Below, piece by piece: positions 10,701-61,339 of a DNA stretch of 64,000 nucleotides (positions are counted from its first letter, which is position 1; each line of letters opens with the position of its first letter). Position numbers and translations under genes: made by a program. The notes beneath the pieces are model-generated. The model was not told the DNA's origin, searched no databases, and saw only the letters and a program-made list of their open reading frames with translations. The DNA comes from Strigamia acuminata (taxonomy: Eukaryota), in the NCBI GenBank assembly GCA_949358305.1, contig OX442314.1:9362001-9426000 (forward strand), in the 5' to 3' direction.

Positions 10701-11789
10701 CAAGCGAAAATGTGAGATTACCCCACCCCTTTAAATCCTCGTCTTGTATCGGTTTCTCAATAGTGTCCATCCATTTTGACGTAATTTTTTTACATTTTAT
10801 TAAGGAATGACCAATTTAGTGACGACAGATGTCAGTTGCAGATGATGCCCTAATTGGGAGCTTCGTTTTCCAAATGATTATAACATGAGTTGCAGAAAGA
10901 GGACGCAGCTTGTTATCAAAACGCTCTTGAGAACATGACCTAGCACTACAAATGTAATTAATTGCTCTACATAATGAGAGAGAGAGAAAGTACGGAATTG
11001 TCACCCGTTTGATCCCCCACTTTGAGGTAAAATGAATTAAAACGCGAGTCAATTTGAAGCCTGTGCAGTCATCAATCTTGTCTGGTCGTGGCAGTTTGAT
11101 AAAGAAAATCCCTCCATCTCCCCCACCCCACCCCATAAAAAATGGTGTAAATTTCAACCACTACTGACAATTTATCATGGAACCCCCAAATGACCACAAT
11201 TTTAAAAATTTTATATTTAAAAAAAAGAAATTATTTAATTAAAATTAAAACCTCGTTACAATCCAAACTCCGTTATAACGAATTACTAAAAGTAGAAACA
11301 AAAGTCGTTGTAACGAGGTTTTTGCTGTTTTACTTTTATTAACTCGTGGGACTTGAAATGTTCAACCCTAGCAATTGCAAGGGGCCTCCCTGGGATTGGT
11401 GTACAATAGGCCCTCGTTATAACGAAGCTCACTATACACTGATTCACTGCACAACTGTACTTGTAACCAGATATTGTTACAATTATTATGATGGAAAAGC
11501 TTGCTGTAACCAGTATTGGGCGAGATCTCAAGTCATGCAAGAAGTACTGTCAAAACCCGGAACAGGTGTTGTACCAGCAATGCAAGACCCAGTACTTTGA
11601 AAAAAAAGTACAGTATACTGTATACAGGTACAGCAATAGTACTGAGAAAAATCACAACAATATCATGTACTTACAGTGTTCTTAGCATTGATTGTAGTCA
11701 ATTACGATTTAGCGTATAAAAGAAGCAGCCATTGAGCCAGTGGCCAAATGCCAAACACTGGCTGTAAACCACACTGTAACGACACTATA

Positions 11790-12200
11790 AAACTTTGTTT
11801 TACGCTGTAAAACCTCGTTATAATGCTGTAAAACCTCGTTATAACGCTGTAAAACCTTATTATAACGCTGTAAAACATTATTATAACACTATAAAACATC
11901 GTTATAATGCTGGTAAAACCTTGTTATAACGCTGTAAAACTTGCTATAACGCTGTAAAACCTCGTTATAACGCTGTAAAACCTCGTTATAACGCTGTAAA
12001 ACCTCGTTATAACGCTGTAAAACCTCGTTATAACGCTGTAAAACCTTATTATAACACTAAAACCGTATTATAATGCTGCAAAACCTCGTTTCAACACTAC
12101 GAAACCTCATTATAACACTGTAAAACTGCGTTATAATGCTGCAAAACCTCGTTGTAATGCTGCAAAACTTTGCTACAATGCTGTAAAACCTCGCTATTAA
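11790..12200. repeat. 21-bp minisatellite GCTGTAAAACCTCGTTATAAC
   Basis: Direct tandem copies; the unit contains the MITE TIR core CCTCGTTATAAC. Confidence 0.9.
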
Positions 12201-13500: not shown

Positions 13501-14481
13501 AATTTTGCACATTTTAGTCAATTTTCCACATTTTCAGCAAATCTCAGCCATTTTTTTACACATTACAGCAAATTTCACAAAATACACCACACATTTACCA
13601 ACTTTCAACTCCACAAAAATCAACTCTGCAAGTCAAACTTTTAAAACAGAGAAAACATAAAAATTAAAAACTTGCTGCTGGCAATCTGAAACCTTTCACA
13701 TATAAACCTTAACCACAAAAATAAAAAAAAACCAAAAAAAAAAACCACGATTTCCTCCCGTTCATTTTCCATTCCAATCCATCTGTTACCACCTCAAGAC
13801 ATCCACAAAATGTCACAAAATCCACATCCATTTAAATACTTTTATTTCCAAAATACCCCCACCAACCCCACCACCATTTTATTCAAATACCAAACACATG
13901 TAAACGCCTAAACCTATTTGCTTTTACAGCAAACATCTGTTTGTTTTTGCCCTACTGCTGCCAGCAATACCCCAACATCAAAAACATAAAAAAAACAACA
14001 AAAAATCCCAACAATTTTTTAATCCCAAAAAAAAAAAAAAAAAAAAATCGACATTTATTTAAGATTTATCTAAGATTTATTTAAGATTTATTTAGCCGGT
14101 ATTAGCATCTAATTTCCTTGTTGGCAACTTGGCATTAGACGAGTGCAGCGCAGTGAAGCGCATTCCCAGGCGGTGCTTTTTGTGTTGTCTCAATCTCGCC
14201 CTCTCGTCGATAATTTACTGCTGTTGCTATTAAAATTTTATGGCAAATTCCTTTATTTATTCTCTCAGATGCAAATGCACGAGGGATTCAACTCAACTCG
14301 TCCCACATTAACAACTGATACTTTCTTTTTTCGTCTCCCACTCTCGCCCATTTCTCAAACTGCGTCTCTTTGCCCAAATAAATCAATTGCAGACCCAGGA
14401 GTGCATTAAGCTAAGAGACACAGACATGCGCACAACAAATTACAACCAACTCATTTGTGCGCATTCCTTTTTCAACAACAA

Positions 14482-14665
14482 TGCTGTGTTCGGACTTCAC
14501 TGCATGTTTTGTGTAGTGACGTTATCTTTGCCTCAGGCGCTGTACCCCCAGCGCCACCTTGTAGCTTGACCCCGAATAAAGCACTTGTTAGTTCTTAGCC
14601 TAATATGACTGACCTTTCATTTCAACCATCCTCAACATAATTTGTTATTAGTAAGATATATACTA
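14482..14665 (+). repeat. 5' LTR (TG...TA)
   Basis: Direct repeat of 19021-19204. Contains AATAAA and a GGCGCTG...CAGCGCC stem. Confidence 0.95.
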
Positions 14666-14667
14666 AA

Positions 14668-14677
14668 TGGCGACGAG
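14668..14677 (+). promoter_or_regulatory. Primer-binding site, probably tRNA-Ser(GCU)
   Basis: TGGCGACGAG lies 2 nt after the 5' LTR and is complementary to the ...CTCGTCGCCA 3' end of eukaryotic tRNA-Ser(GCU) (tRNA sequence recalled, not searched). Confidence 0.75.
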
Positions 14678-14861
14678 ATAAGGATCCGAAATCCACGTGC
14701 AACTAATGAATCCAGTAGCGACGCAAGTTTTTTTCGTGTTTTTCGAACTTTTGAGCGCTTTTTCGGCCCGTTGCTGACCACGCCGTCCCGACGTTAGGCC
14801 TACGTTCCATTGTCACGTTTTCCTCGCGTTTTCGTACTCAACGCCGACTTTTGCCATCAAA

Positions 14862-17800
14862 ATGTCAGCTCTAAAAGGGACACCGCGGGAATACGATCCA
14901 ACAGAGGATTGGGGCCTGTATTGCAAGCGAATGACGAGCATTTTCGCTTGTAACAAAATCGTCGATGACCAGGAGAAGGTCCACACGCTGCTGTCGTACG
15001 TCGGCATGCCGACGTTTAAGCAGCTGGACACGCTCGCGGCGCCGAAGGAAGCTGCCGACTTGAAGTACGCGGACCTTGTGGCCTTGATGCAGAAAAATGC
15101 ACGCGCGAAGCCGCTCGTGCTGGGAGAAATTCGCCGTTTTCACCGCCGTGATCGATTGCCGAATGAAACCGTGCTGGAGTATTCTCTCGCTCTTCAGGAC
15201 CTGGCCCAAAACTGTGAGTTCGCCGACAAAACTAACGAATTAAGAAATCGCTTTCTTTGTGGCCTCCAGAATGAGCAAGTGCAACAGGCGCTCACGTTAA
15301 AAAAAGATTTGACGTTCGACGACGCGGTCGAGTTCGCTGCCGCTGCTGAAGTGTCGCAAAAGGAATTTTCGACAATCGCGACGCAGAATGCATCGGCGCT
15401 GCCGGTGCACAAACTCCACTACGACTCCAAACCACGTCACGATGCGTCAAGGGGTAGAAAACGCTCCTCGAGGGGCACTACCTCGTTTCAACCAGGCCGC
15501 CAACCATCCAACTCGAAAGGAAATGTGTCGGCGTGTTCTGCTTGCGGCAGTAAGTCGCACACGCGTGAAGCGTGCCGTTTTCGCGATGCCACGTGCCACG
15601 GATGCGGAAAAACTGGCCACATCAAACCAGTTTGCCGGTCGGTCTTGAAGTCACCAGCTCCAGTCCATGCAGTCGAGATGCCACAACAGCTCACGTACTA
15701 CGCTGTCGAGCCGGATTTGACGACGACCGTCAACGCGATTGGCATTAAAGCCACACAACCAATTATTTTGGCCATTAAAATTGCTAATGTCAATCTCCTA
15801 ATGGAAATGGACACGGGAGCAGGCGCTACATTTATAAATCTCGAAACTTACACTAAATATTTTTCAAATTTTCCATTGCAGCCCCTTCCGATCCAGATGA
15901 ATACGTATGGCGGCACAACACTCCGAATGGAAGGGGTTTGCGAAGTTCCGGTTCGTCATCGTGATCGCGATTTTCGTTTGCCGTTGTGCGTGGCGACTCA
16001 CGGCCCCGTCCCACTTCTTGGCCGCGACTGGCTCGAAGCATTTGGTTTGCTGTCGAAAACTGGCGACCTGGTGGGCGCAGAAGTATTTTCGTTGTCCACA
16101 TCGACGCCAACGCCCGAGAAGCTCGATACACCGTCGTCCAACAGATTGGACGAGATTTTGGAACGTCATGCCAACGTTTTTCGCGATGAAATCGGATGCT
16201 ACAACGTGCACAAGGTCCACATCGATATCGATCCGGCCGTGCAACCGATATTTTTGAAGAATTACCCAGTTCCACTCGCGATGAAGCCACGACTGGAGGA
16301 AGAGCTGCGCAGACTGCAGGATTTAGGTATCATAACTCCTGTCGCTTCTTCTAAATGGGCGACACCTATTATGCATGTCCTTAAATCAGATGGCACGTTA
16401 AAGATAGCGGGATGCTATAATAGAACCATAAATAAGGCGGTTCTCCCCAACTCTTACCCTTTACCTCTGTTTGAAGACGTTGCAGCGAAGTTGTCGGGCG
16501 GTGAGACGTATTCTACTCTAGATATGAATCACGCCTACAACCAGCTGGAGTTGGATGCAGAGAGTAAATTGGTGTGCACAATTAATACCCACTTGGGTCT
16601 CTTCACAGTAAATAGACTTTTTTACGGGATATCCAGCGCGCCGGCAATCTTCCAACGCGAGATGGACAAATTAACAGCCAAAGTCGAGAGTACGCAGCCG
16701 TTCATTGATGATTCGGCCGTGACCGGTGCAACAAACGCAACGCACTTATGCAACCTGGATCAATTATTGGGTGCATTTGACAAAGCCAATTTAACATTAA
16801 ATAGAAAAAAGTGCAAGTTTTTGCGTGCTTGTGTGCAGTTTTTGGGGCTGAACATTTCCAAGCTAGGAATCACGCCAGTGGACTCAAAATTGGCTCCACT
16901 ACGCAACGCCATGCAGCCAACCGACGTTTTATCGCTCAAATCGTTCCTGGGGCTCATAAACTATTATGGCAAATTTATTAATAATTTATCCACTTTATTA
17001 GAGCCGCTTTACCGCCTCACGCGCGACGATACGCCGTGGACATGGGGACAGGAACAACACAAGGCCTGGACGAAGGTCAAGGCTGCAGTAACTGTCGATT
17101 CAGCGCTGGCACACTACGACGCGAAGAAGCAACTTTATCTGACCGTTGATGCCTCGCCGGTCGGTGTGGGCGCCTTTATTTCCCACGTAGAAAATGGAAT
17201 CCATCGTCCAATTGCCTTTGCGAGTTCCCTCTTGTCCAGCGCGCAGAAAAATTATGCGCAAATCGACCGTGAAGGTCTTGCGATCGTTTATGGCGTTCGC
17301 CGCTTCCATCACCACCTGTTTGGGAGAAAATTCATTTTACGAACTGACCACAAACCGCTGGTGGCCATTTTCGGAGAGAAGAAAGGATGCAATCAAATTG
17401 TCGCCGCTCGCCTGCACCGGTGGGCAATTTTCCTGAGTGCCTACGATTATGCTATCGAGCATGTGCCTGCGGTCGACAACCAAATTGCAGATGGATTGTC
17501 TCGCAATCCTCAACCTGTTGTCGACGGTCGAGAAGACCTCGACATGCACGTTAACGAAATATTTTCCGTTTCTCTTTCGCAGTTTCCAGTATCGCAAGCA
17601 GCCTTGCGTGCAGCATACGACGCAGACGCCCAATTGCAAGCAGTTCTGCAGTGCATCCGAGACGAATGGAAATCAAAGACACCTGACTTAATAAATTTTT
17701 ATAAGCACAGGTCCGCCTTTTCCACACATGGACCATTCTTGTTCCTGTCGGAGCGTTTGGTCGTGCCAGAGCAGCTTCGCCGTGCAGTCCTGACGGAGTT

Positions 17801-18920
17801 GCATGCAGGACATTTCGGAATCGTTCGCACCAAGTCGCTCGCTCGCTCAACAGTTTGGTGGCCGTCAATCGACCGTGACATCGAGTCGATGGTGCGTTCG
17901 TGCGACGTGTGCCAGCGCGCACTCCCGGATCCGCCAAAGACGTCCGACCTGCGTTGGCCCATTCCCGACGAAATTTGGGGGCGAATCCACCTCGATTTCG
18001 CCGGCCCCTTCCATGGCAAAATGTTCCTGCTGGCTGTGGATGCGCGCACCAAGTGGTGCGAAGTTCGTATGATGACCGCCACTACCTCGAAAGCAACAAT
18101 TGCGGTTTTAAAATGTTGGTTTAAACGTCACGGCTTGCCGATCCACGTTCATTCCGACAATGGGCCGCAATTCACTTCAGCGGAATTTGTTGACTTCCTG
18201 TCACGGAACGGCATCCGACAAACTCGTTCACCGCCTTTCCACCCAGCTACCAACGGAGCAGTGGAAGGCTTCGTGAAGACTTTTAAAAATCAAGTCGGAA
18301 AATTTCTAAATTTGAATTTGAGCATTTCAGAAGCCGTTGACCAATTTTTAATTGCCTATCGCTCGACGCCGCACGTTTCTACACGGACTACGCCGTCCGA
18401 GGCATTTCTACAACGAACTGTTCGAACTAGATTACATTTGTTGAACCCCCGCTTAATGCCGGAGCCAACAACTGTGGAAACGCGCCGTTCCTTCGAGCCT
18501 GGGGAATTGGTGTTCGCGCGCGACTATTTGCACGCCGCGAGATGGGTTCCTGGGATAATATCGCAGAAGACATCGTCCACCACGTACGATGTGGCCGTCG
18601 GAAATGCCATAATTTGGAACCGACATGCGGACCAGCTCCGAAAACGCCAGACTTCGCACGCTCAAATTCCGGAGGGGGGAGGGAATCGCGGACATTTTCC
18701 TTTGATAAGTGACGACTCAAACCTCGGTAATACACCCTCAGTTGTACAACCGCAAGTCCTAGTTGCTCCTCCCAATTCACCCAACCTCCTAAACGTTCGT
18801 GATGCTTCTCCAGCTCCTACACCTCCTCCTGTTCCCGTCAATACTCCTGTTGTGCCGTACCGCCATCCCCAGCGTATTCGCAACCCGACACAATTTTACG
18901 GATATAATAACAGTGATTAA
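14862..18920 (+). CDS. Gag-Pol polyprotein, 1352 aa (2 CCHC zinc knuckles, protease, RT, RNase H, integrase)
   Basis: Knuckles CSACGSKSHTREAC and CHGCGKTGHIKPVC; protease MDTGA; RT LD...AY, FYGISSAPAIFQ and FIDD; RNase H VDAS and TDHKPL; integrase H-x3-H...CDVC, LDFAG, SDNG and NGAVE. The PR-RT-RH-IN order indicates Gypsy. Confidence 0.97.
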   Translation: MSALKGTPREYDPTEDWGLYCKRMTSIFACNKIVDDQEKVHTLLSYVGMPTFKQLDTLAAPKEAADLKYADLVALMQKNARAKPLVLGEIRRFHRRDRLPNETVLEYSLALQDLAQNCEFADKTNELRNRFLCGLQNEQVQQALTLKKDLTFDDAVEFAAAAEVSQKEFSTIATQNASALPVHKLHYDSKPRHDASRGRKRSSRGTTSFQPGRQPSNSKGNVSACSACGSKSHTREACRFRDATCHGCGKTGHIKPVCRSVLKSPAPVHAVEMPQQLTYYAVEPDLTTTVNAIGIKATQPIILAIKIANVNLLMEMDTGAGATFINLETYTKYFSNFPLQPLPIQMNTYGGTTLRMEGVCEVPVRHRDRDFRLPLCVATHGPVPLLGRDWLEAFGLLSKTGDLVGAEVFSLSTSTPTPEKLDTPSSNRLDEILERHANVFRDEIGCYNVHKVHIDIDPAVQPIFLKNYPVPLAMKPRLEEELRRLQDLGIITPVASSKWATPIMHVLKSDGTLKIAGCYNRTINKAVLPNSYPLPLFEDVAAKLSGGETYSTLDMNHAYNQLELDAESKLVCTINTHLGLFTVNRLFYGISSAPAIFQREMDKLTAKVESTQPFIDDSAVTGATNATHLCNLDQLLGAFDKANLTLNRKKCKFLRACVQFLGLNISKLGITPVDSKLAPLRNAMQPTDVLSLKSFLGLINYYGKFINNLSTLLEPLYRLTRDDTPWTWGQEQHKAWTKVKAAVTVDSALAHYDAKKQLYLTVDASPVGVGAFISHVENGIHRPIAFASSLLSSAQKNYAQIDREGLAIVYGVRRFHHHLFGRKFILRTDHKPLVAIFGEKKGCNQIVAARLHRWAIFLSAYDYAIEHVPAVDNQIADGLSRNPQPVVDGREDLDMHVNEIFSVSLSQFPVSQAALRAAYDADAQLQAVLQCIRDEWKSKTPDLINFYKHRSAFSTHGPFLFLSERLVVPEQLRRAVLTELHAGHFGIVRTKSLARSTVWWPSIDRDIESMVRSCDVCQRALPDPPKTSDLRWPIPDEIWGRIHLDFAGPFHGKMFLLAVDARTKWCEVRMMTATTSKATIAVLKCWFKRHGLPIHVHSDNGPQFTSAEFVDFLSRNGIRQTRSPPFHPATNGAVEGFVKTFKNQVGKFLNLNLSISEAVDQFLIAYRSTPHVSTRTTPSEAFLQRTVRTRLHLLNPRLMPEPTTVETRRSFEPGELVFARDYLHAARWVPGIISQKTSSTTYDVAVGNAIIWNRHADQLRKRQTSHAQIPEGGGNRGHFPLISDDSNLGNTPSVVQPQVLVAPPNSPNLLNVRDASPAPTPPPVPVNTPVVPYRHPQRIRNPTQFYGYNNSD

Positions 18921-19020
18921 GTGTATTTGTTTTTATTAATCGAATTGGTACATTGTCTATCGTGAATGAATTCTATTATTGTATTTGTGATTTGATTAAT
19001 GTGCCATTAATGGGGAATGA

Positions 19021-19204
19021 TGCTGTGTTCGGACTTCACTGCATGTTTTGTGTAGTGACGTTATCTTTGCCTCAGGCGCTGTACCCCCAGCGCCACCTTG
19101 TAGCTTGACCCCGAATAAAGCACTTGTTAGTTCTTAGCCTAATATGACTGACCTTTCATTTCAACCATCCTCAACATAATTTGTTATTAGTAAGATATAT
19201 ACTA
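19021..19204 (+). repeat. 3' LTR
   Basis: Copy of 14482-14665, preceded by the purine-rich AATGGGGAATGA (PPT-like). Confidence 0.95.
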
Positions 19205-19364
19205 AACAAAACATTTTTTCTCTCTCTCTCTCTCTCTCACAAACTCGCAAAAATATTTCGTAATTGGTGGTCGTGAATCATTCTGCCGTCAGATGGCAGC
19301 TTCCACTCGCGCCAAATATCCGGTTCCATCTCGATGCATGAGATATGGAAGGGGGTGCAAGATA

Positions 19365-19771
19365 CTGTCGAACCTCGTTATAACGTAGTAATCCCCGGGT
19401 TCCTTACAATTCGTTATAACGAGGTTCGACTGAATTTATCATCGCGATATAACGAATTGTCGTTATAACGAAGAAATTTTACGAGTTCCTTACGATTCGT
19501 TATAACGAGGTTCGACTGTACCTACGTTTCGGGATATAACAAATTTTCGTTATAACGAAAAAATTAACCCCGGGTATCTTCAGATTCGTTATAACGAGGT
19601 TCGACTGTACCTATGCATCGGGATATAACGAATTTTCGTTATAACGAAAAAATTTCTCAGGTTTCTTGCGATTCGTTATAACGAGGTTCGACTGTACCTG
19701 TGTAACAAATTTTCGTTATAATGAAGAAATTTCCTCATGTTCTTGCGATTCGTTATAATGAGGTTCGACTG
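19365..19771. mobile_element. Tc1/mariner(pogo/Tigger)-type MITE with five tandem right ends
   Basis: Left end TA|CTGTCGAACCTCGTTATAACG. CGTTATAA(C/T)GAGGTTCGACTG ends at 19432, 19518, 19607, 19694 and 19771, the last four followed by TA. Confidence 0.8.
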
Positions 19772-20289
19772 TACCTATGGAGTTTGATTCTCCCCCTTTT
19801 CTTTTCCGGTATGTTTCGTGTGTTGTTGTATAATCGTCTCGCGAAAGCCGATCCTATGCAAATTGCCGGTCCCGGGAGACGAATCCCAATCACATCTTTC
19901 AATTGGATTTGGGCTGAGCGAGTTTCAATTTTATTCCCACACAACATGTTTTTTTTTTTTAAAGAAAAAAAACGTAATGCATCGAGTTCGTTATAGGGAA
20001 TGTTGGTTTTAAATTGGGTTGTTTTGTTTTGTATTTTTATTTTTTTTTGTCATTTTATGTGAAATCATTTTTGCAGATAAATGTTTTTGATGAGTGATTT
20101 GATTGGTAATTTTTATACAATTACCAGTACAGTATTACTATTAGGAAACACGGATTTTGATTGTGATTGATGATTCAAATTTGCAATTGTTTGGGTAAAT
20201 TTCAAATGATTGTAGTGATTTTGTGCACATTTTGGTTGAATTTCTCATGAACTTAATGATTTTGTGTCAAAATTTGGTTGAAATCCGAA

Positions 20290-22385: not shown

Positions 22386-23395
22386 ACAACACCGCCACCA
22401 CCGTACAAATCAAAAACCAAACTTTTTCCAACAAATAACACGATTTTTTGATAAACCGGATCCACAACCCCCTTCACCCCCCCACACAATAAAAAAAAAA
22501 TTCTAAAAATTAAAAAAAAAAAACCTGAACAATGTGACAAATGCAGGGGGTAACAGGGTCACATGATGGATGACAATGACTTTTGATTGGGTTAATTGGA
22601 CGCGTGTCTTCAAACTCACGTCGGACAGCCGCAAGAGGTCGTCCCAACTGTTATAACAAGCCACATTTAATGGATTTCCCTTAACCCTAAACCATTAACT
22701 ATAATTAAAATAATTGACGTCGCATGTCACGTGTCCAGCAGTTGTCAAGGTATTGCCCACTCTTTTTTCCCCATTCCGCATTTTACACCCCTGCCCCCCC
22801 CACCTGCCCCCCCATTCAACTCACAAATGTGAGGGAGGAAGGACAAACAAAATCCCTCTTTGTCACAGCGCCTTATCGCCACCAGAGGGGGCGGCATAAC
22901 CAATTTAATCATGGTTACCCCCTTATCGTGGCCCCCTAATCAGTGACAACCCCCTTGTAGAAGTACACAACACTTCCCCACCCCCACCAATCCCGGCTTT
23001 TCAGCATCTGAGTGACACTTTGCCCTCCCCTTGTGTCACCAACACCGAAATCCTCCCCCCGGAGCTTTCAATAAATATTTAATGTTCAGAAGTCTCTTAC
23101 CTTGAGGCGTCGCTTTTATGCTATCGAGCAACCGGAAGTGGATATGTTGCTCAGGAAATTGTCACCTCGGGCTGTTATTTTATCCAATTATCATCAACCT
23201 GGAAAATAAGTGGCGACTTGTTAACACCAATAAAGTGGACATTTTGTCAGAAACGAGTAACGACTTAGAAAATCAACAAATCATTCTGATTGGATAGAAA
23301 TTAAATATTATAATTTTTTTTTTTTAAATAATAAAATTTTAAAAAATAAAAAAATAACATTAAGTATCATGCAGGGTGTAATTTTCAATATAAAA

Positions 23396-23526
23396 ATAAT
23401 TTTTTATAATTAAATTTCAAAAAATTAACATTAGGCATCATGCAGGCTGTACTTTTCGACCAAGTTACCGCCTGCATGATGCTGGAAAATTCGCTTTTCA
23501 GCCATTTTTAAACGAGAATTATTTTA
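23396..23526. repeat. Left arm of the ~130-bp inverted repeat flanking H2B
   Basis: Reverse complement of 24231-24361, about 94% identical by eye. Internal hairpin GCATCATGCAGGC...GCCTGCATGATGC. Confidence 0.9.
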
Positions 23527-23582
23527 TTATTATTAAAAAAACGAAAAACAAGCATTACAAAATAGAAAAAAACCAACGGAGC

Positions 23583-23984
23583 TTAATTAATTTCCTTCTT
23601 TTCATCATCAAATTCAATCTCTTTGCTTTTTTCGGCAACCAGAGCGCCTTGATACCTGGCCACGGCTTTGTTGCCTTCGCAAACGGCGTGTCGGGCCAAT
23701 TCCGGGGGAAGCATTAATCGAACGACGGTCTGGACTTCCCGACTGGTAATAGTGCCGCGCTTGTTTATTTGCGCCACACGAGCAGCTTCGTCCGCGATCC
23801 TTTCGAATAAATCGATGACCATACTATTCATAATGTTCATCGCCTTGTTGGTAAGACAAGAACCGGGATGAACGTCCTTCAACACCTTATTAATGTAGCT
23901 CATGTAATTTTCCTTCCTGCGCCGGCTTCGTCGCTTCTTATCGCCGCTCATGTTCAACACGGATCGCTTGGTCGCTGGAGCCAT
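23583..23984 (-). CDS. H2B: Divergent histone H2B variant, 133 aa, intronless
   Basis: Histone-fold motifs [39 protein letters not shown] and [31 protein letters not shown], plus an extra C-terminal tail. Confidence 0.93.
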
Positions 23985-24033
23985 GATCTAATGTCCGTTA
24001 GTTTCGAATGTGCTTGAAGTTACTTCCAGCGAG

Positions 24034-24130
24034 CCTATATACAGAAAATTCCGAACGAAATACCACCGTAAGAGTCAATCCTCATTGGTCACTAAGTTTA
24101 CGTATGCCGTACGAATTTCGGCAGCCAATC
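24034..24130 (-). promoter_or_regulatory. Histone-type promoter: TATA plus two opposed CCAAT boxes
   Basis: TATATA at 24036-24041 (~52 nt upstream of the ATG), CCAAT on the minus strand at 24084-24088 and on the plus strand at 24125-24129. Confidence 0.65.
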
Positions 24131-24230
24131 AGCGGCAAGAAGGTTCACGGCATGTATTTTTAACCATTAAGTTCGATTATTTACGTTAAAATTCGAATTT
24201 ACCGACGGAAACAAATTTTTTACTCAAAAA

Positions 24231-24361
24231 TAAAATTATTCTCGTTTAAAAATGGCCGAAAAGCGAATTTTCCAGCATCATGCAGGCTGTAACCTGGTCA
24301 AAAAGTACAGCCTGCATGATGCCTAATGTTAATTTTTTTAAAATTTAATTATAAAAATTAT
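24231..24361. repeat. Right arm of the ~130-bp inverted repeat flanking H2B
   Basis: Reverse complement of 23396-23526. Confidence 0.9.
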
Positions 24362-24387
24362 CTTTTTTAATTTTATTCAAAGATAAA

Positions 24388-24845
24388 AGGGGCCCGAACC
24401 CTCCACTTAGGCCCAACCAATGGGGCCCAAAATTATACTACTTCCCCAAGGTTCAGGAAACCCAAAATTGACACACAAAGGGGCCCCAAAATTGACTTTT
24501 TTATTAGGTCCAGTCAAAGGGGCCCTAACATTGACTGTTCTTCCTAGGTCCAGTCACAGGGGCCCCAAAATAAATTTTTTTTCATGCTCATGGGCCCCAA
24601 AATTGACAGTAAATTCCCTGGTGCAGACAAACGGGCCCCAAAAATGACGTTTTCCACAGGTCAAAAGTTTCTCTCCCTAGACCCAATGAAAGAGTCCTCA
24701 AATTCTCTCTCTTTTAAGCCCCATGGGGCCCACAATCAACTCATTATTGCCCAGGCCCCAAGAGACCCGAAATTACATATAAATTACAAACATCAATTCG
24801 TGTGATTTATGGTTTTTCAAGTGGCTGGGGGCCCCCATTGGCCGG
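24388..24845. repeat. Degenerate GGGGCCCC(AAAATTGAC) repeat array, probably a DNA-transposon remnant
   Basis: About 10 GGGCCC-containing motifs at 30-60 bp spacing; ends not defined. Confidence 0.5.
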
Positions 24846-39787: not shown

Positions 39788-40432
39788 CAGTCAAACCTCG
39801 TTATAACAAACCGCGATATAACGAATTTTTGTCATAACAAACCGCGATATAACGAATTTTTGTCATAACAAACCGCGATATAACGAATTTTCGTTATAAC
39901 ATACCACGATATAACAAATTTTCGTTTTTACAAACCGCAATAAAACAAATTTTCGTTATAACATACCACAATATAACAAATTTTCGTTTTTACAAACCGC
40001 AATAAAACAAATTTTCGTTATAACAAACCACGATATAACAAATTTTCGTTATCACAAATGCAATATAATGAATTTTCGTCATAACAAACCACAATATAAC
40101 GAATTTTCGTTATAACAAACCGCAATATAACGAATTTTCGTTATAACAAACCGCGATATAACGAATTTTCGTTATAACAAACGTAATATAAAGAATTTTC
40201 CTCATAACAAACCACGATATAACGAATTTTCGTTATAACAAACCACGATATAACAAATTTTCGTTTTCACAAACACAATATAATGAATTTTCGTCATAAC
40301 AAACCACAATATAACGAATTTTCGTTATAACAAACCGCGATACAACAACTTTTCGTTTTTACAAATCCTAAAAAATGACTTGGTTGGTTGGTTTTTGCCA
40401 TTTTCGGTCACTTCGTTATAACGGGGTTGGAC
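39788..40432. mobile_element. pogo/Tigger-type MITE expanded by an internal ~32-bp satellite
   Basis: Left end CAGTCAAACCTCGTTATAAC, tandem ATAACAAACCGCGATATAACGAATTTTCGTT units, degenerate right end CGTTATAACGGGGTTGGAC. Confidence 0.7.
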
Positions 40433-45667: not shown

Positions 45668-45912
45668 CTATACTCTGTCTGACCTTAAGAATAGAGAAAA
45701 CTCCCATTGGTCGAGACTTTTTCACTGGTGCAGTGATACCTAAAAGTAGAACAATACACCAGGCTTTAATAACACATCAGGTTTTATTAAACACTTCGTT
45801 GTTGTTTTTAATGGAATTCTTAGTGTGAATAGTACGATCGCGATCACACACTCCACAGTAAGGAGTAATAAGGCCGGAGTTTTCTCTATTCTTAAGGTCA
45901 GACAGAGTATAG
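45668..45912. mobile_element. MITE with perfect 37-bp TIRs
   Basis: CTATACTCTGTCTGACCTTAAGAATAGAGAAAACTCC (45668-45704) is the exact reverse complement of 45876-45912. Confidence 0.85.
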
Positions 45913-45927: not shown

Positions 45928-46095
45928 ACACGTGTGTTCACACTAGGGGCGACGCAACGCAACGCAAGGAAAAATTAGTCAAACGCAACGCAGAGTCTGT
46001 TCACACGTGTCCTACAGTGTGAACAGACTCTGCGTTGCGTTCGACTAATTTTTCCTTGCGTTGCGTTGCGTCGCCCCTAGTGTGAACACACGTGT
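45928..46095. repeat. Near-perfect palindrome (79-bp arms, 10-nt loop); probably a collapsed PIF/Harbinger-like MITE
   Basis: 45928-46006 versus 46017-46095 with one mismatch; TGTTCACAC and ACGCA repeats. Confidence 0.85.
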
Positions 46096-52844: not shown

Positions 52845-53257
52845 AAACCTCGTTATAACAAAGTCGGGCCGCCGCATAAGGATCTTTGGCGGAATCTTTA
52901 GCGAATTATGAATTATGAATAGTTATGATGTCGCATATAACGAATTATCGATATAACGAATTATCGGTATAACGAATTTTCGATATAACGAATTATCGAT
53001 ATAACGAATTATCGATATAACGAATTATCGATATAACGAATTATCGATATAACAAATTATCGATATAACAAATTATCGATATAACAAATTATCGATATAA
53101 CGAATTATTGATATAACGAATTATCGATATAACGAATTATCAATATAACGAATTTTAAAAAATGATTTTTTTTAGATAATTCGTTTTAACGAACTCTCGT
53201 TATAACCAATCGATTTTTCCGGTCCCTTGCGATTCGTTATAAAGAGTCTCGACTGTA
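52845..53257. mobile_element. pogo/Tigger-type MITE with a 16-bp GATATAACGAATTATC satellite
   Basis: Left AAACCTCGTTATAAC, satellite at about 52935-53150, right end GATTCGTTATAAAGAGTCTCGACTGTA. Confidence 0.65.
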
Positions 53258-57899: not shown

Positions 57900-59037
57900 G
57901 ATCGCTGTCATGTCACTGGCAAATGATACAAAGAACGAATCATATGCTATTATAATAAATATTCACAAGACGTTACAGAAAGAACAAATCCTTTATCAGG
58001 TAAACTTAAGACAGGAAAATGGCACTAATTTAGTGTTTATTCTTAACAAGTTCACTTCTTTAATTCATTTAAGATAATTCGTGTTTTGAGGATTGAATGC
58101 AGCTAACAACACTTGTGTCACGACTTTAAGACGCCCCTCCGTCATTCCACTCGACATAACACGACCGTGTTTCGCTTTTTTGAATGTGCCTTGTGCATCC
58201 AACATTCCAACCCAAATAAAAAGACTCAGTTAACAGTACCCTAACCACATGCAAGACATCCATTTATCCAACCATCCATCTCCTCACCCTTATATAAAAA
58301 AAACCCTCTAAACGAATCTTGACTTCCCTCATAACAAATTCCTTAACCTCTACCCCTTGAACTCCTCATCATCACCATCTTATTCAACTCTTTACGCCCA
58401 CCTGATGCGAACGAGGGGGTCATGTTAAACATGCATCATCATTTCCCCATCCCCTCGGACAACCACTGTCGATCAATAACCCCCACACCCCCCCCCTAAG
58501 CATCACTCAACATCAAATTTCATCATTTTTTGTTGTCCCTTTTTGCGGTCACAAAAGACTCGACAAGCGTTTAATTCAATCAAAAAACACCGCCATTCTC
58601 CGTCAGGGCGGCCATTTTCCAACTCAAAACACGCTGTTTGCTCTGAATTGTGCGTTTCAGGACGAACGATCTCAACATCGCCCTAATTACAGATAGAACA
58701 AATCCCAATTGTGATGTTTCGGTACTTCTCTCTGTGGGTTAATGAAAACCAAGTCAAAATAATTTGAAGTCTCTTGGGCACGAAATGTTTTCGGAACCTT
58801 TTACTAGCTAGGCAAAACAGCAACCGTACACGCATAACGTTTTGATTAAAAAGGTAAACTAATACAACAAAAGAACAATACTATGACACGTACAATACTC
58901 ACACACCACACATGACATAACATACGTTAACTAAAAATCAGCACTCTTCAAATGACATAAATTCAACACTAAGATACTGTGACTAACAAATATTATATAA
59001 AATATTATAAATGATAAAATGCAAATCTCATTTATTT

Positions 59038-60147
59038 GGTGCACGACGTTGCCAGCGTCTAAGGCTGCCAGCGTCTATATTTTTAGCATTTGTTCAATTT
59101 TTTTTTTTTTTTGCCAGCTTATTGCTTGTTTAGCGTTTTAAATAAATGAATAAATAAATTAATATTCAGTTTTTTGCCAGCCTTGTTCTTGCCAGCGTCT
59201 ACACTGCCAGCGTTTATAGTGCCAGCGTCTCACTTTGCCAGCGTTTTGACCGCCAGCGTTCGTTTTTGCGTAACGTACGCGTCGCATACACGCTAACGTA
59301 ACACGTCGCGAAAACGTTACCAGTCCGACTGGATCGAGGAGATGGACTCCTCCAGACTGTTCTGTCCACTGTTCTTCTGCTGGATGAAGAGACGCACGAG
59401 TGAGAACGACTGGCTGCTCTGCGACGACCTGGAATGTGACGAGACGCTCGACTGCTGCACGTCGTACACGGGCACGCACTGCTCGGAGTCGGACGACACG
59501 TTCAGCTGGCTCATGCCGATCTCCGACGCGCTCAGCGACTGGCGCAACAAGTTGGGCAGACTGCGACTCTTCGTCCCCGCCACGTTGGGCGGCGCGCGCT
59601 CGACGCCGCCGCCCCCGCCCTTCCTCAGCTTGCTCCACGTGGTGAGCGCGTAGTCGGACTGCACCATCGAGCGGTCGAGGCCCTTGTGCAGCCCGTAGTG
59701 CACGGAGGCGGCGTCGCCCGCGTCGCACCCGCTCACGCTCGCGCCGTCGTGGTAGTCCGAGTCCTCGGACGACATGTTTTCGGGCGACATGGCGAAGATG
59801 GAGGTGGGGCATTTGTCCCTGCGCACGGCGCCCAGCTCAAGCAGCCATTGGCAGTCGTTGGCGGTGAGGTCCTGCGAGGAGAGCATCAGGTCGTTGCGAC
59901 GCTGAAATTAAGAACGCTGGCAAAATCCAATAAAAGTATTATTATTATTATTATTATTTTTTTATTACTTATTATTTTTTTTATTATTTAATTTATTATA
60001 CGCTAAGACCTACTGACGCTGGCAACAATAGACGCTGGCACCATCAGAAGCTGGCAAAACATTATTGAAAATAATAATAGAAATAATAATAAACTCACGC
60101 TAAAAAACGAGAAGCTGGCGAATTTCGACGCTGGCAAAACCACGACC
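59038..60147. mobile_element. Mutator/Foldback-like non-autonomous element with modular TIRs and 9-bp TSD, carrying an exon (Pack-MULE-like)
   Basis: TSD CATTTATTT at 59029-59037 and 60148-60156. Termini GGT...ACC. The left arm has about 9 GCCAGC(G)T motifs (59050-59260); the right arm has about 6 inverted A(C/A)GCTGGC motifs (59913-60135). The first ~55 bp of the two ends align collinearly. Confidence 0.8.
59321..59901 (-). CDS. Single GC-rich internal coding exon (~193 codons, Ser-rich), protein not recognised
   Basis: Acceptor TAATTTCAG| at 59902 and donor TG|GTAACG at 59320. Open frame RRNDLMLSSQDLTANDCQWLLELG...KSRSLPNLLRQS...SLVRLFIQQK...IQSD with strong GC3 bias. Phase 0 in, phase 2 out. 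Confidence 0.8.
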
Positions 60148-61339
60148 CATTTATTTTACAAAAATAAATTTACTTTACGTGGTTAATACGAACTACAGTT
60201 ATGTAATGAGCGTTTTAGCTCCGTTTCGTGGTAAAACCTGGCGGAAAGTTTTTTTTATGATACCACTCACTTGAGATGTCGATGTTCATCGATTCAAAAC
60301 GAGGCCATTAAGCCCGACCGGGATCCTTTTGTTTGCTCCTCATCTCGTCGACGGACGGACGCGGGACGCGGAGTTTGTTAATAAAAAGACAGACACAAAT
60401 GATAGATGAAAATGGAGGTTGTTGAATCAACAAAAGTCTCAAAGGAGAACCGCCATTGCGCTCCGCTGCTTGTGTACACTGGAATTTCAATTAGCGTTCG
60501 CGATTTATGGACACAGCTCTCGTTTCCCTTTTCTCTCTCCCTCTGTTGACTGATGCTGCAAAGTCGGGCGTTGCGCTTGTTCCGAGGACTTGCTCAAAGT
60601 CATTTCGATGGTGAAGCATTATTTACATGTCAGAAAGGGAAAAAAATATTAAAAGATTTTTGTCAGGAGAAAAATTGTATCTCGGTGATTAGCCAGGCGT
60701 TTCGTGTCGTTCGGCAGCTTATTTCGAGTCGTCGTCTTGCGGCGAGATCGTAAACAATGTGGTAATGTAAATAAGATGTGGGCAAATCAATTGGGACTTG
60801 TTTTTTTATTTGCAGAGATGGGCTTTGTTTAAATGTTGGTTTTTTGCTTGGAGAGCTTGGAGGTAAGAAAAAAAGTTTCCATTTTTTTAATAATTTCTTT
60901 TTAAAAGTTTGTTTAGTCAGCCATTTTTTTTTTTTTTACCGAAAAGGGTAAATCTGGATTTTGGCTTTTTACCCGATATGACGCGTTTTACATCAAAATA
61001 AGGATTAAGATTAAGTGAAATTGAAATTATTTCTTCGACTTACGGTATCTCTTCTGCACCTGCTATTGGCTATCATCGTTACCAGATATTCACGGTTGCG
61101 AAGGAATTCCTATAACAGTTCAAGCTTCACGCTAAGTACACATAAGACTTTCAGACTCTGAATATTCAGAGTTTGAATTTTCAGATTGTCACGCCGCAAA
61201 CGAAATGATTCCACCTGTGCGTTTGGCTGTCTTTCCACGGTTGATCCCTCTCCGGCAGATCCAAATGCTTTTCCTCTACCTAGTCCTACGGCTTCAGAAG
61301 ATGAAGCATTAGGGGATTGCTATTCTGCCACACCACGGT

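Follow-up and report, generated by a model that had tools for sequence, protein, structure and literature searches.

A gene for a strongly divergent histone H2B variant is enclosed, as the only histone gene in the 64-kb stretch of DNA analysed here (the window, to which positions refer), between two modular arms that are inverted copies of one another. This structure, an orphan histone within modular inverted arms, had been put forward in the original prediction and was confirmed in its parts (arms, H2B open reading frame, sole histone in the window). As its origin we tentatively put first a single Pack-TIR-like capture of the H2B variant into a small non-autonomous element of the foldback/Mutator type, which has since been fixed.

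The intronless H2B open reading frame (23583..23984, minus strand, 133 aa) is documented by the ORF list and by Pfam and PDB matches. It is preceded by a 5' UTR and promoter region (23985..24215, minus strand), to which a function is assigned from motifs: a TATATA element (24036-24041) 57 nt upstream of the H2B ATG, a gene-facing CCAAT box (24084-24088) at 104 nt and an opposite-facing CCAAT box (24125-24129) at 145 nt. On the other side, a unique 3' UTR of 42 nt (23541..23582, minus strand) reaches from the stop codon to the left arm. TATA, CCAAT and the H2B reading frame are thus all located between the arms as originally predicted, whereas the poly(A) signal, which had been placed there too, actually resides inside the left arm. 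The sole AATAAA near the H2B stop codon is found at 23523-23528 (minus strand), 57 nt from the stop, and has a mirror copy in the right arm at 24229-24234. The window contains 1.9 such hexamers per kb and strand, so that the position in the left arm is suggestive and no proof. A transposase is not encoded between the arms, where H2B is the only sizeable reading frame. None of 13 Rfam matches, all far below the gathering score, represents a histone 3' stem-loop of the H2B gene. The statement that the window lacks a second histone gene also stood: in tblastn, 157 proteins including H2A-, H3- and H4-containing fusions matched only the H2B reading frame and the RUSC exon described below. The region 24125-24216 combines the opposed CCAAT box with a TATA-like run around 24156 and ends at the inner edge of the arm, at about the distance where the start of a divergent H2A gene would be expected. 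With its two opposed CCAAT boxes and a TATA-like run beyond them, the upstream region presumably resembles a shared H2A-H2B promoter severed shortly before H2A, and 24125-24216 is possibly the remnant of such a promoter.

The left arm (23389..23540) borders the 3' side of the gene and consists of an A/T-rich outer part, a hairpin (23435-23482) and an inner part of about 60 nt with the AATAAA. The right arm (24216..24369) on the 5' side is its mirror copy, with the hairpin at 24275-24322. In BLAST, 23392-23540 and 24365-24216 are 92% identical over 151 nt (E 1e-55), the gapped alignment spans 23389-23540 and 24216-24369, and an ungapped core (23415-23531 and 24226-24342) contains 7 mismatches in 117 nt, i.e. 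94% identity, in agreement with the earlier estimate of about 94% for arms of 130 bp. The spacing between the two arms amounts to ~675 nt. As had been claimed, each arm has a hairpin of its own, formed by a 13-nt motif that pairs with an inverted copy of itself: DNA folding gave z values of -4.8 and -5.7, and none of 200 shuffles was equally stable. Exact copies of the motif are situated at 23435, 23471 (minus strand), 24275 and 24311 (minus strand), and a copy with one mismatch at 23364. The latter is part of an older, incomplete tandem duplicate of the left-arm outer module (23339..23386, plus strand, motif at 23364-23375). It had been noted before as an extra partial copy at 23356-23380 and was recovered with 81% likeness to the left arm over 48 nt (D13) and 87% over 38 nt (I2). 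This third module is present on the left side only, without a counterpart outside the right arm. Neither BLAST nor a motif search revealed further arm copies in the 64-kb window, and the exact hairpin pattern gave 0 matches each in metagenome contigs and in viral contigs.

That the protein is a histone-fold H2B follows from Pfam (Histone, PF00125, E 3e-18), from the best PDB matches, all of which are H2B (E ~1e-36), and from the gap-free alignment of its fold (aa 22-111) with canonical H2B rows. On none of three counts does it look like a canonical replication-coupled H2B: fold identity is at most 68% with any of the 157 fetched proteins (median of the canonical control 94%), the 64 kb contain no histone cluster, and a stem-loop match is lacking. 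Two large protein searches yielded no relative above 68% in the fold, and the exact protein is absent from a collection of 15 billion proteins. The N-terminal tail is about 10 residues short, while an acidic C-terminal extension of 22 aa carries a net charge of -3; the total charge is +9 versus +20 for the reference protein P0001. A structure model computed from the single sequence shows helices only at low confidence (pLDDT 66). Residue K120 of H2B is the ubiquitylation site and Y83 a contact with H4. At the positions that we take to correspond to these by human H2B numbering, the variant has Arg and Ile, respectively; among the fetched proteins, Lys is present at the former in 152 of 154 pattern matches, Arg in none, and Tyr at the latter in 124 of 125. 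Ubiquitylation of the variant at the K120 position would presumably be impossible, and a natural K120R, Y83I H2B would offer a probe for nucleosome stability and H2B-ubiquitin signalling. Judged by its sequence, the protein is an old, strongly divergent variant and not a canonical H2B, a trait on which the original prediction was silent; it is probably functional and probably replication-independent. To our knowledge, H2B variants have been little described outside vertebrates. A germline role is a guess by analogy: according to the available portion of a review, H2B variants act mostly in spermatogenesis, and replication-coupled histone genes feature a stem-loop instead of a poly(A) signal (PMC8015243).

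Similar proteins were also sought in environmental data. Seven of 112 metagenome candidates are H2B-like, at 49-65% over longer stretches or with matches of 16 aa. Among the four H2B-like metagenome loci checked for inverted repeats, long ones occur only in locus L001, where they span the coding region itself. This locus features a 407-nt inverted repeat (96%) over the H2B coding region at 962-1983, apparently two head-to-head copies 208 nt apart; this pair is unrelated to the arm-H2B-arm unit. A viral origin of the H2B gene is unsupported, as 0 of 6 viral-contig candidates are H2B-like.

The stretch is present in three of six listed sequencing runs, from two studies. When contigs from four of the six runs (X2 to X5) were compared with 23420-24335 at a likeness of at least 80%, read set X2 returned 3 matching records out of 5,118,378, namely a 904-nt contig, a 38-nt node and a 39-nt match taken as chance. 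The 904-nt contig runs from arm to arm with 0 differences, and X2 may be the source of the window DNA itself. Read set X3, which stems from another study, returned 5 matching records out of 877,071, including one arm-to-arm contig of 896 nt that deviates from the window by 17 differences, 16 of which are listed. Because this contig from a different study spans the unit from arm to arm, the arm-gene-arm unit is real and not private to one assembly. Five differences fall in the coding region. The fold carries three, every one synonymous (P 0.01-0.02 in the neutral case), and the tail two, both of which change a residue. Difference density is 8 per 231 sites in the upstream region and 3 per 270 in the fold. 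Taken together, this is a slight indication of selection on the histone fold, with a synonymous excess resting on three sites. Of the 16 listed differences, two (at 23469 and 24223) bring the arms back into agreement with each other and one other sets them apart, so the arms were more alike shortly before the window and X3 versions split. As far as these comparisons tell, the arms are young or recently homogenised and the divergence of the protein is old.

A further X3 contig (record 7) matches the last helix (window 23653-23702) with 82% over 50 nt and represents a second H2B-like sequence. Translated by hand in register with the C-terminal extension described here, its loose end gives YNGSYIAGNK and continues beyond the canonical H2B stop. 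None of the 310 nt on the 3' side of this one short contig aligned to the arm, so extended H2B variants can apparently exist without arms, and this one short contig suggests a small family of such variants in this species. In runs from other organisms, X4 gave 0 records and X5 one A/T-rich match of 34 nt taken as chance; contigs do not prove absence.

Several other repeats populate the window. A degenerate GGGCCC-motif repeat (24386..24842; D12, D15, D17) abuts the right arm and may have removed the outer right end of the H2B unit. At 14481-19206 an LTR retrotransposon, a very recent insertion, is framed by 187-nt LTRs that are identical (14481-14667 and 19020-19206); its uninterrupted frame of 1380 codons (14778-18920) reads like a Ty3/gypsy gag-pol. 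A near-perfect palindrome of 169 nt (96%) at 45928-46095 is adjoined by a perfect inverted pair of 37 nt (45668-45704 and 45876-45912), the two making up MITE-like elements. Tandem arrays at 11788-12197, 19375-19777, 39798-40365 and 52935-53154 have the common core TCGTTATAAC and probably belong to a widespread repeat family of the genome.

Some 35 kb away from the H2B gene, a Pack-MULE-like element is located at 59038-60147, flanked by a 9-nt direct repeat (59029-59037 and 60148-60156). A 9-nt repeat within 3 nt of both ends arose in 0.07% of 200,000 random window pairs. Both termini carry GGT, and inward-facing motif arrays comprise nine copies on the left and six on the right, with one more within the exon that the element contains. 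This RUSC/iporin exon occupies 59317-59907 on the minus strand, has a GC content of 65% and both splice acceptor and donor, and finds its best match in the centipede Strigamia (56%, E 2e-57), followed by a sea spider; from this one gene, the host is probably a myriapod-like arthropod. The exon shows an in-frame gap of 137 residues versus Strigamia and ~169 versus the sea spider in a region common to both; other RUSC exons do not occur in the window. In its sequence features, the element makes a convincing case for Pack-MULE-like capture, better supported than that of the H2B unit. Its 9-nt repeat and internally deleted exon lend weight to the earlier proposal that TIR-type elements capture genes in this genome.

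That the H2B unit itself is or was mobile, as had been proposed, found no support. For Pack-TIRs we asked for a cargo of 100-5000 nt, family termini elsewhere, a TSD of 8-11 nt (MULE/FB) and an arm-less parent of at least 90%. The cargo, ~675 nt with the H2B gene between 150-nt arms, lies in this range, and a TSD of this kind was not found. In its end zones the unit has 26 direct repeats of at least 6 nt, the 25 listed ones all pure A/T, which accords with the earlier failure to see a TSD; the best in-register candidate is a 7-mer that leaves unlike termini. Nor was a recognisable transposon terminus present at the unit. No sibling arm of at least 80% appeared among the 3 X2 and 5 X3 records, where matches down to 34 nt were reported, and no parent gene of more than 80% over its length among the X2 and X3 contigs, the best being the 50-nt match of record 7. 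Both negatives carry little weight, since contigs collapse identical copies, lose rare ones, are filtered and lack the outer junctions. Neither of two findings anticipated in the original prediction was made: dispersed arm-H2B-arm units, favouring mobility, were not seen among the X2 and X3 contigs, and the arm was not met as a common stand-alone repeat, which would speak against it, in the window or in these contigs. A single capture is plausible; spreading is unsupported by any sign found.

Under a single capture, a palindromic or foldback element would have had the arms as its terminal repeats. When it broke between them, the gap would have been filled, following the gap-filling model for single-copy Pack-TIRs, with ~675 nt (promoter, reading frame and 42 nt of 3' UTR) copied from an H2B variant that was already old, and the AATAAA of the arm would have been taken over as poly(A) signal. 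The outer ends may then have decayed or been cut by neighbouring repeats, such that the element no longer moves, while the copy would have been kept functional and behave as a host gene for a replication-independent, perhaps germline, variant. We lean towards this reading because the arms closely bracket promoter and reading frame, because their modular build with five motif copies is like that of foldback/MULE termini, because the H2B gene sits as an orphan among repeats in a window that holds other palindromic elements, and because the structurally similar element at 59038-60147 with its 9-nt duplication and internally deleted exon is found in the same window. Some observations point the other way. 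From arms that differ by just 6-8%, one would expect further family members to be detectable, and a young capture predicts a parent gene, which was not seen at more than 80% over its length in the X2 and X3 contigs. TSD and recognisable terminus are missing, the partial third module is confined to the left, and an AATAAA at the normal distance of 57 nt would need less explaining if the inner arm were native 3' flank of the gene.

The latter idea leads to a second explanation, which we regard as a serious possibility, less probable than capture. Template switching or break repair, for which the hairpin may have been the trigger, would have placed an inverted copy of the hairpin-bearing 3' flank (~150 nt) of a resident old H2B variant just upstream of the promoter of that gene, and the symmetry would only mimic a transposon. 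Such a local inverted duplication accounts together for the three negatives (no TSD, no sibling arms, no parent gene), for the AATAAA of the left arm just where a native signal would be, for the older partial module on the left only, and for arms that were nearly identical recently, as the X3 differences at 23469 and 24223 indicate, whereas the protein is ancient. It requires, however, a chance event that neatly brackets the gene, leaves both the terminus-like arm build from a repeated motif and the orphan position unexplained, and has to compete with a capture process demonstrably at work 35 kb away (59038-60147). If it were true, we would merely be dealing with a lineage-specific histone variant accompanied by an incidental inverted repeat.

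We consider it unlikely that the unit belongs to an active or recently active non-autonomous family that carries the H2B variant at several loci, the copies having been merged in short-read assembly; the variant histone may benefit the element in that case. Contigs indeed merge identical copies and drop rare variants, and the matched ones stop short of the outer junctions. The H2B reading frame and the promoter motifs are intact, and precedents exist, as far as the accessible parts of the papers go, in Ssk-FB4 (PMC8277862) and in H3L, which is borne by hAT elements (PMC3538342). The copy at hand nevertheless lacks a TSD. X2 and X3 each contain one arm-to-arm contig, into which identical copies would merge, and in X3 no alternative versions were seen along the gene with its 17 differences. 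The depth of the unit in X3 (35) is like that of unrelated contigs (36 and 17), a weak hint since depth is no copy number, and in both runs the 38-nt node common to both arms reaches ~1.1 times the unit depth instead of twice. In X3 the word share is 0.52, more than the matched part by itself would yield (0.42, P 0.017) and not clearly different from the 0.48 for a unit without flanks (P 0.20), so that it gives no proof of shared flanks. Even less probable is the far-reaching version, in which a foldback/Mutator-type family spreads its own expressed, acidic-tailed H2B without the K120 ubiquitylation site and thereby alters chromatin or escapes silencing; the earlier idea of an element-borne chromatin modulator received no direct support. 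A Helentron/DINE-type reading was rejected for the symmetry of the unit. Improbable as well are two insertions of a small hairpin element in opposite orientation around a resident gene or an assembly artefact, since, dense as the genome is in small repeats, no further arm copy exists in the window or among the X2 and X3 contigs, and an artefact is in practice excluded by arms differing at 7 of 117 sites and by contigs of two studies that span arm to arm.

Returning to single capture, the unit can be compared with several known systems. Across 100 animal genomes, Tan et al. (2021, PMC8277862), in the portion of the paper at hand, describe 370 Pack-TIRs, of which just four are multicopy and nearly all are single-copy relics; the cargo has a median length of 224 nt. 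The H2B unit resembles these in holding 100-5000 nt of host sequence between inverted ends, apparently in one copy and without transposase. It deviates in that the ends of Pack-TIRs belong to annotated transposon families and a parent of at least 90% is found, neither of which we saw, and in that its cargo is a whole gene with promoter, compared with mostly short fragments (PMC8277862). Although the unit otherwise behaves much like a single-copy Pack-TIR, we have not filed it as one: a TSD was not found, and on family and parent there are the weak negatives from the window and the X2 and X3 contigs. In animals, TIR elements seldom capture an entire gene, the cases described in the same source being mostly fragments. 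If the H2B gene was captured and is under selection, it would clearly exemplify how a DNA transposon can create a chromatin gene or carry one to a new place. In the literature searched, with subscription journals poorly covered, no description of an arthropod H2B inside TIRs was found.

With replication-independent H2B variants, as summarised in the accessible sections of the review (PMC8015243), our gene shares its solitary position, its character as a diverged paralog and the lack of a 3' stem-loop; it is set apart by the acidic C-terminal extension, the enclosing arms and the absence of relatives above 68% in the fold. Ssk-FB4 of Drosophila melanogaster, a protein-coding example to which Tan et al. 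give prominence as near-complete, has TSDs and contains, according to the available text, almost an entire gene flanked by foldback arms (PMC8277862). Common to both cases are a nearly complete gene with its upstream region between arms and a 3' UTR that is partly lost. Ssk-FB4 differs from the H2B unit as known in its ~700-nt TIRs, TSDs of 9-10 nt, occurrence at several loci, known parent and expression (PMC8277862). Histone cargo has precedents in fungi, where, as far as the excerpts go, H3 has been captured and amplified by hAT elements (PMC3538342, PMC6710886). These elements contain H3 and a hAT transposase and reach tens to hundreds of copies, whereas our unit contains an animal H2B and no transposase and shows no amplification. 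As in Pyrenophora tritici-repentis (PMC3538342) and Pseudocercospora fijiensis (PMC6710886), a histone gene lies between terminal inverted repeats, and the hAT-borne H3 of Pyrenophora is, like the H2B described here, divergent from the bulk histone (PMC3538342).
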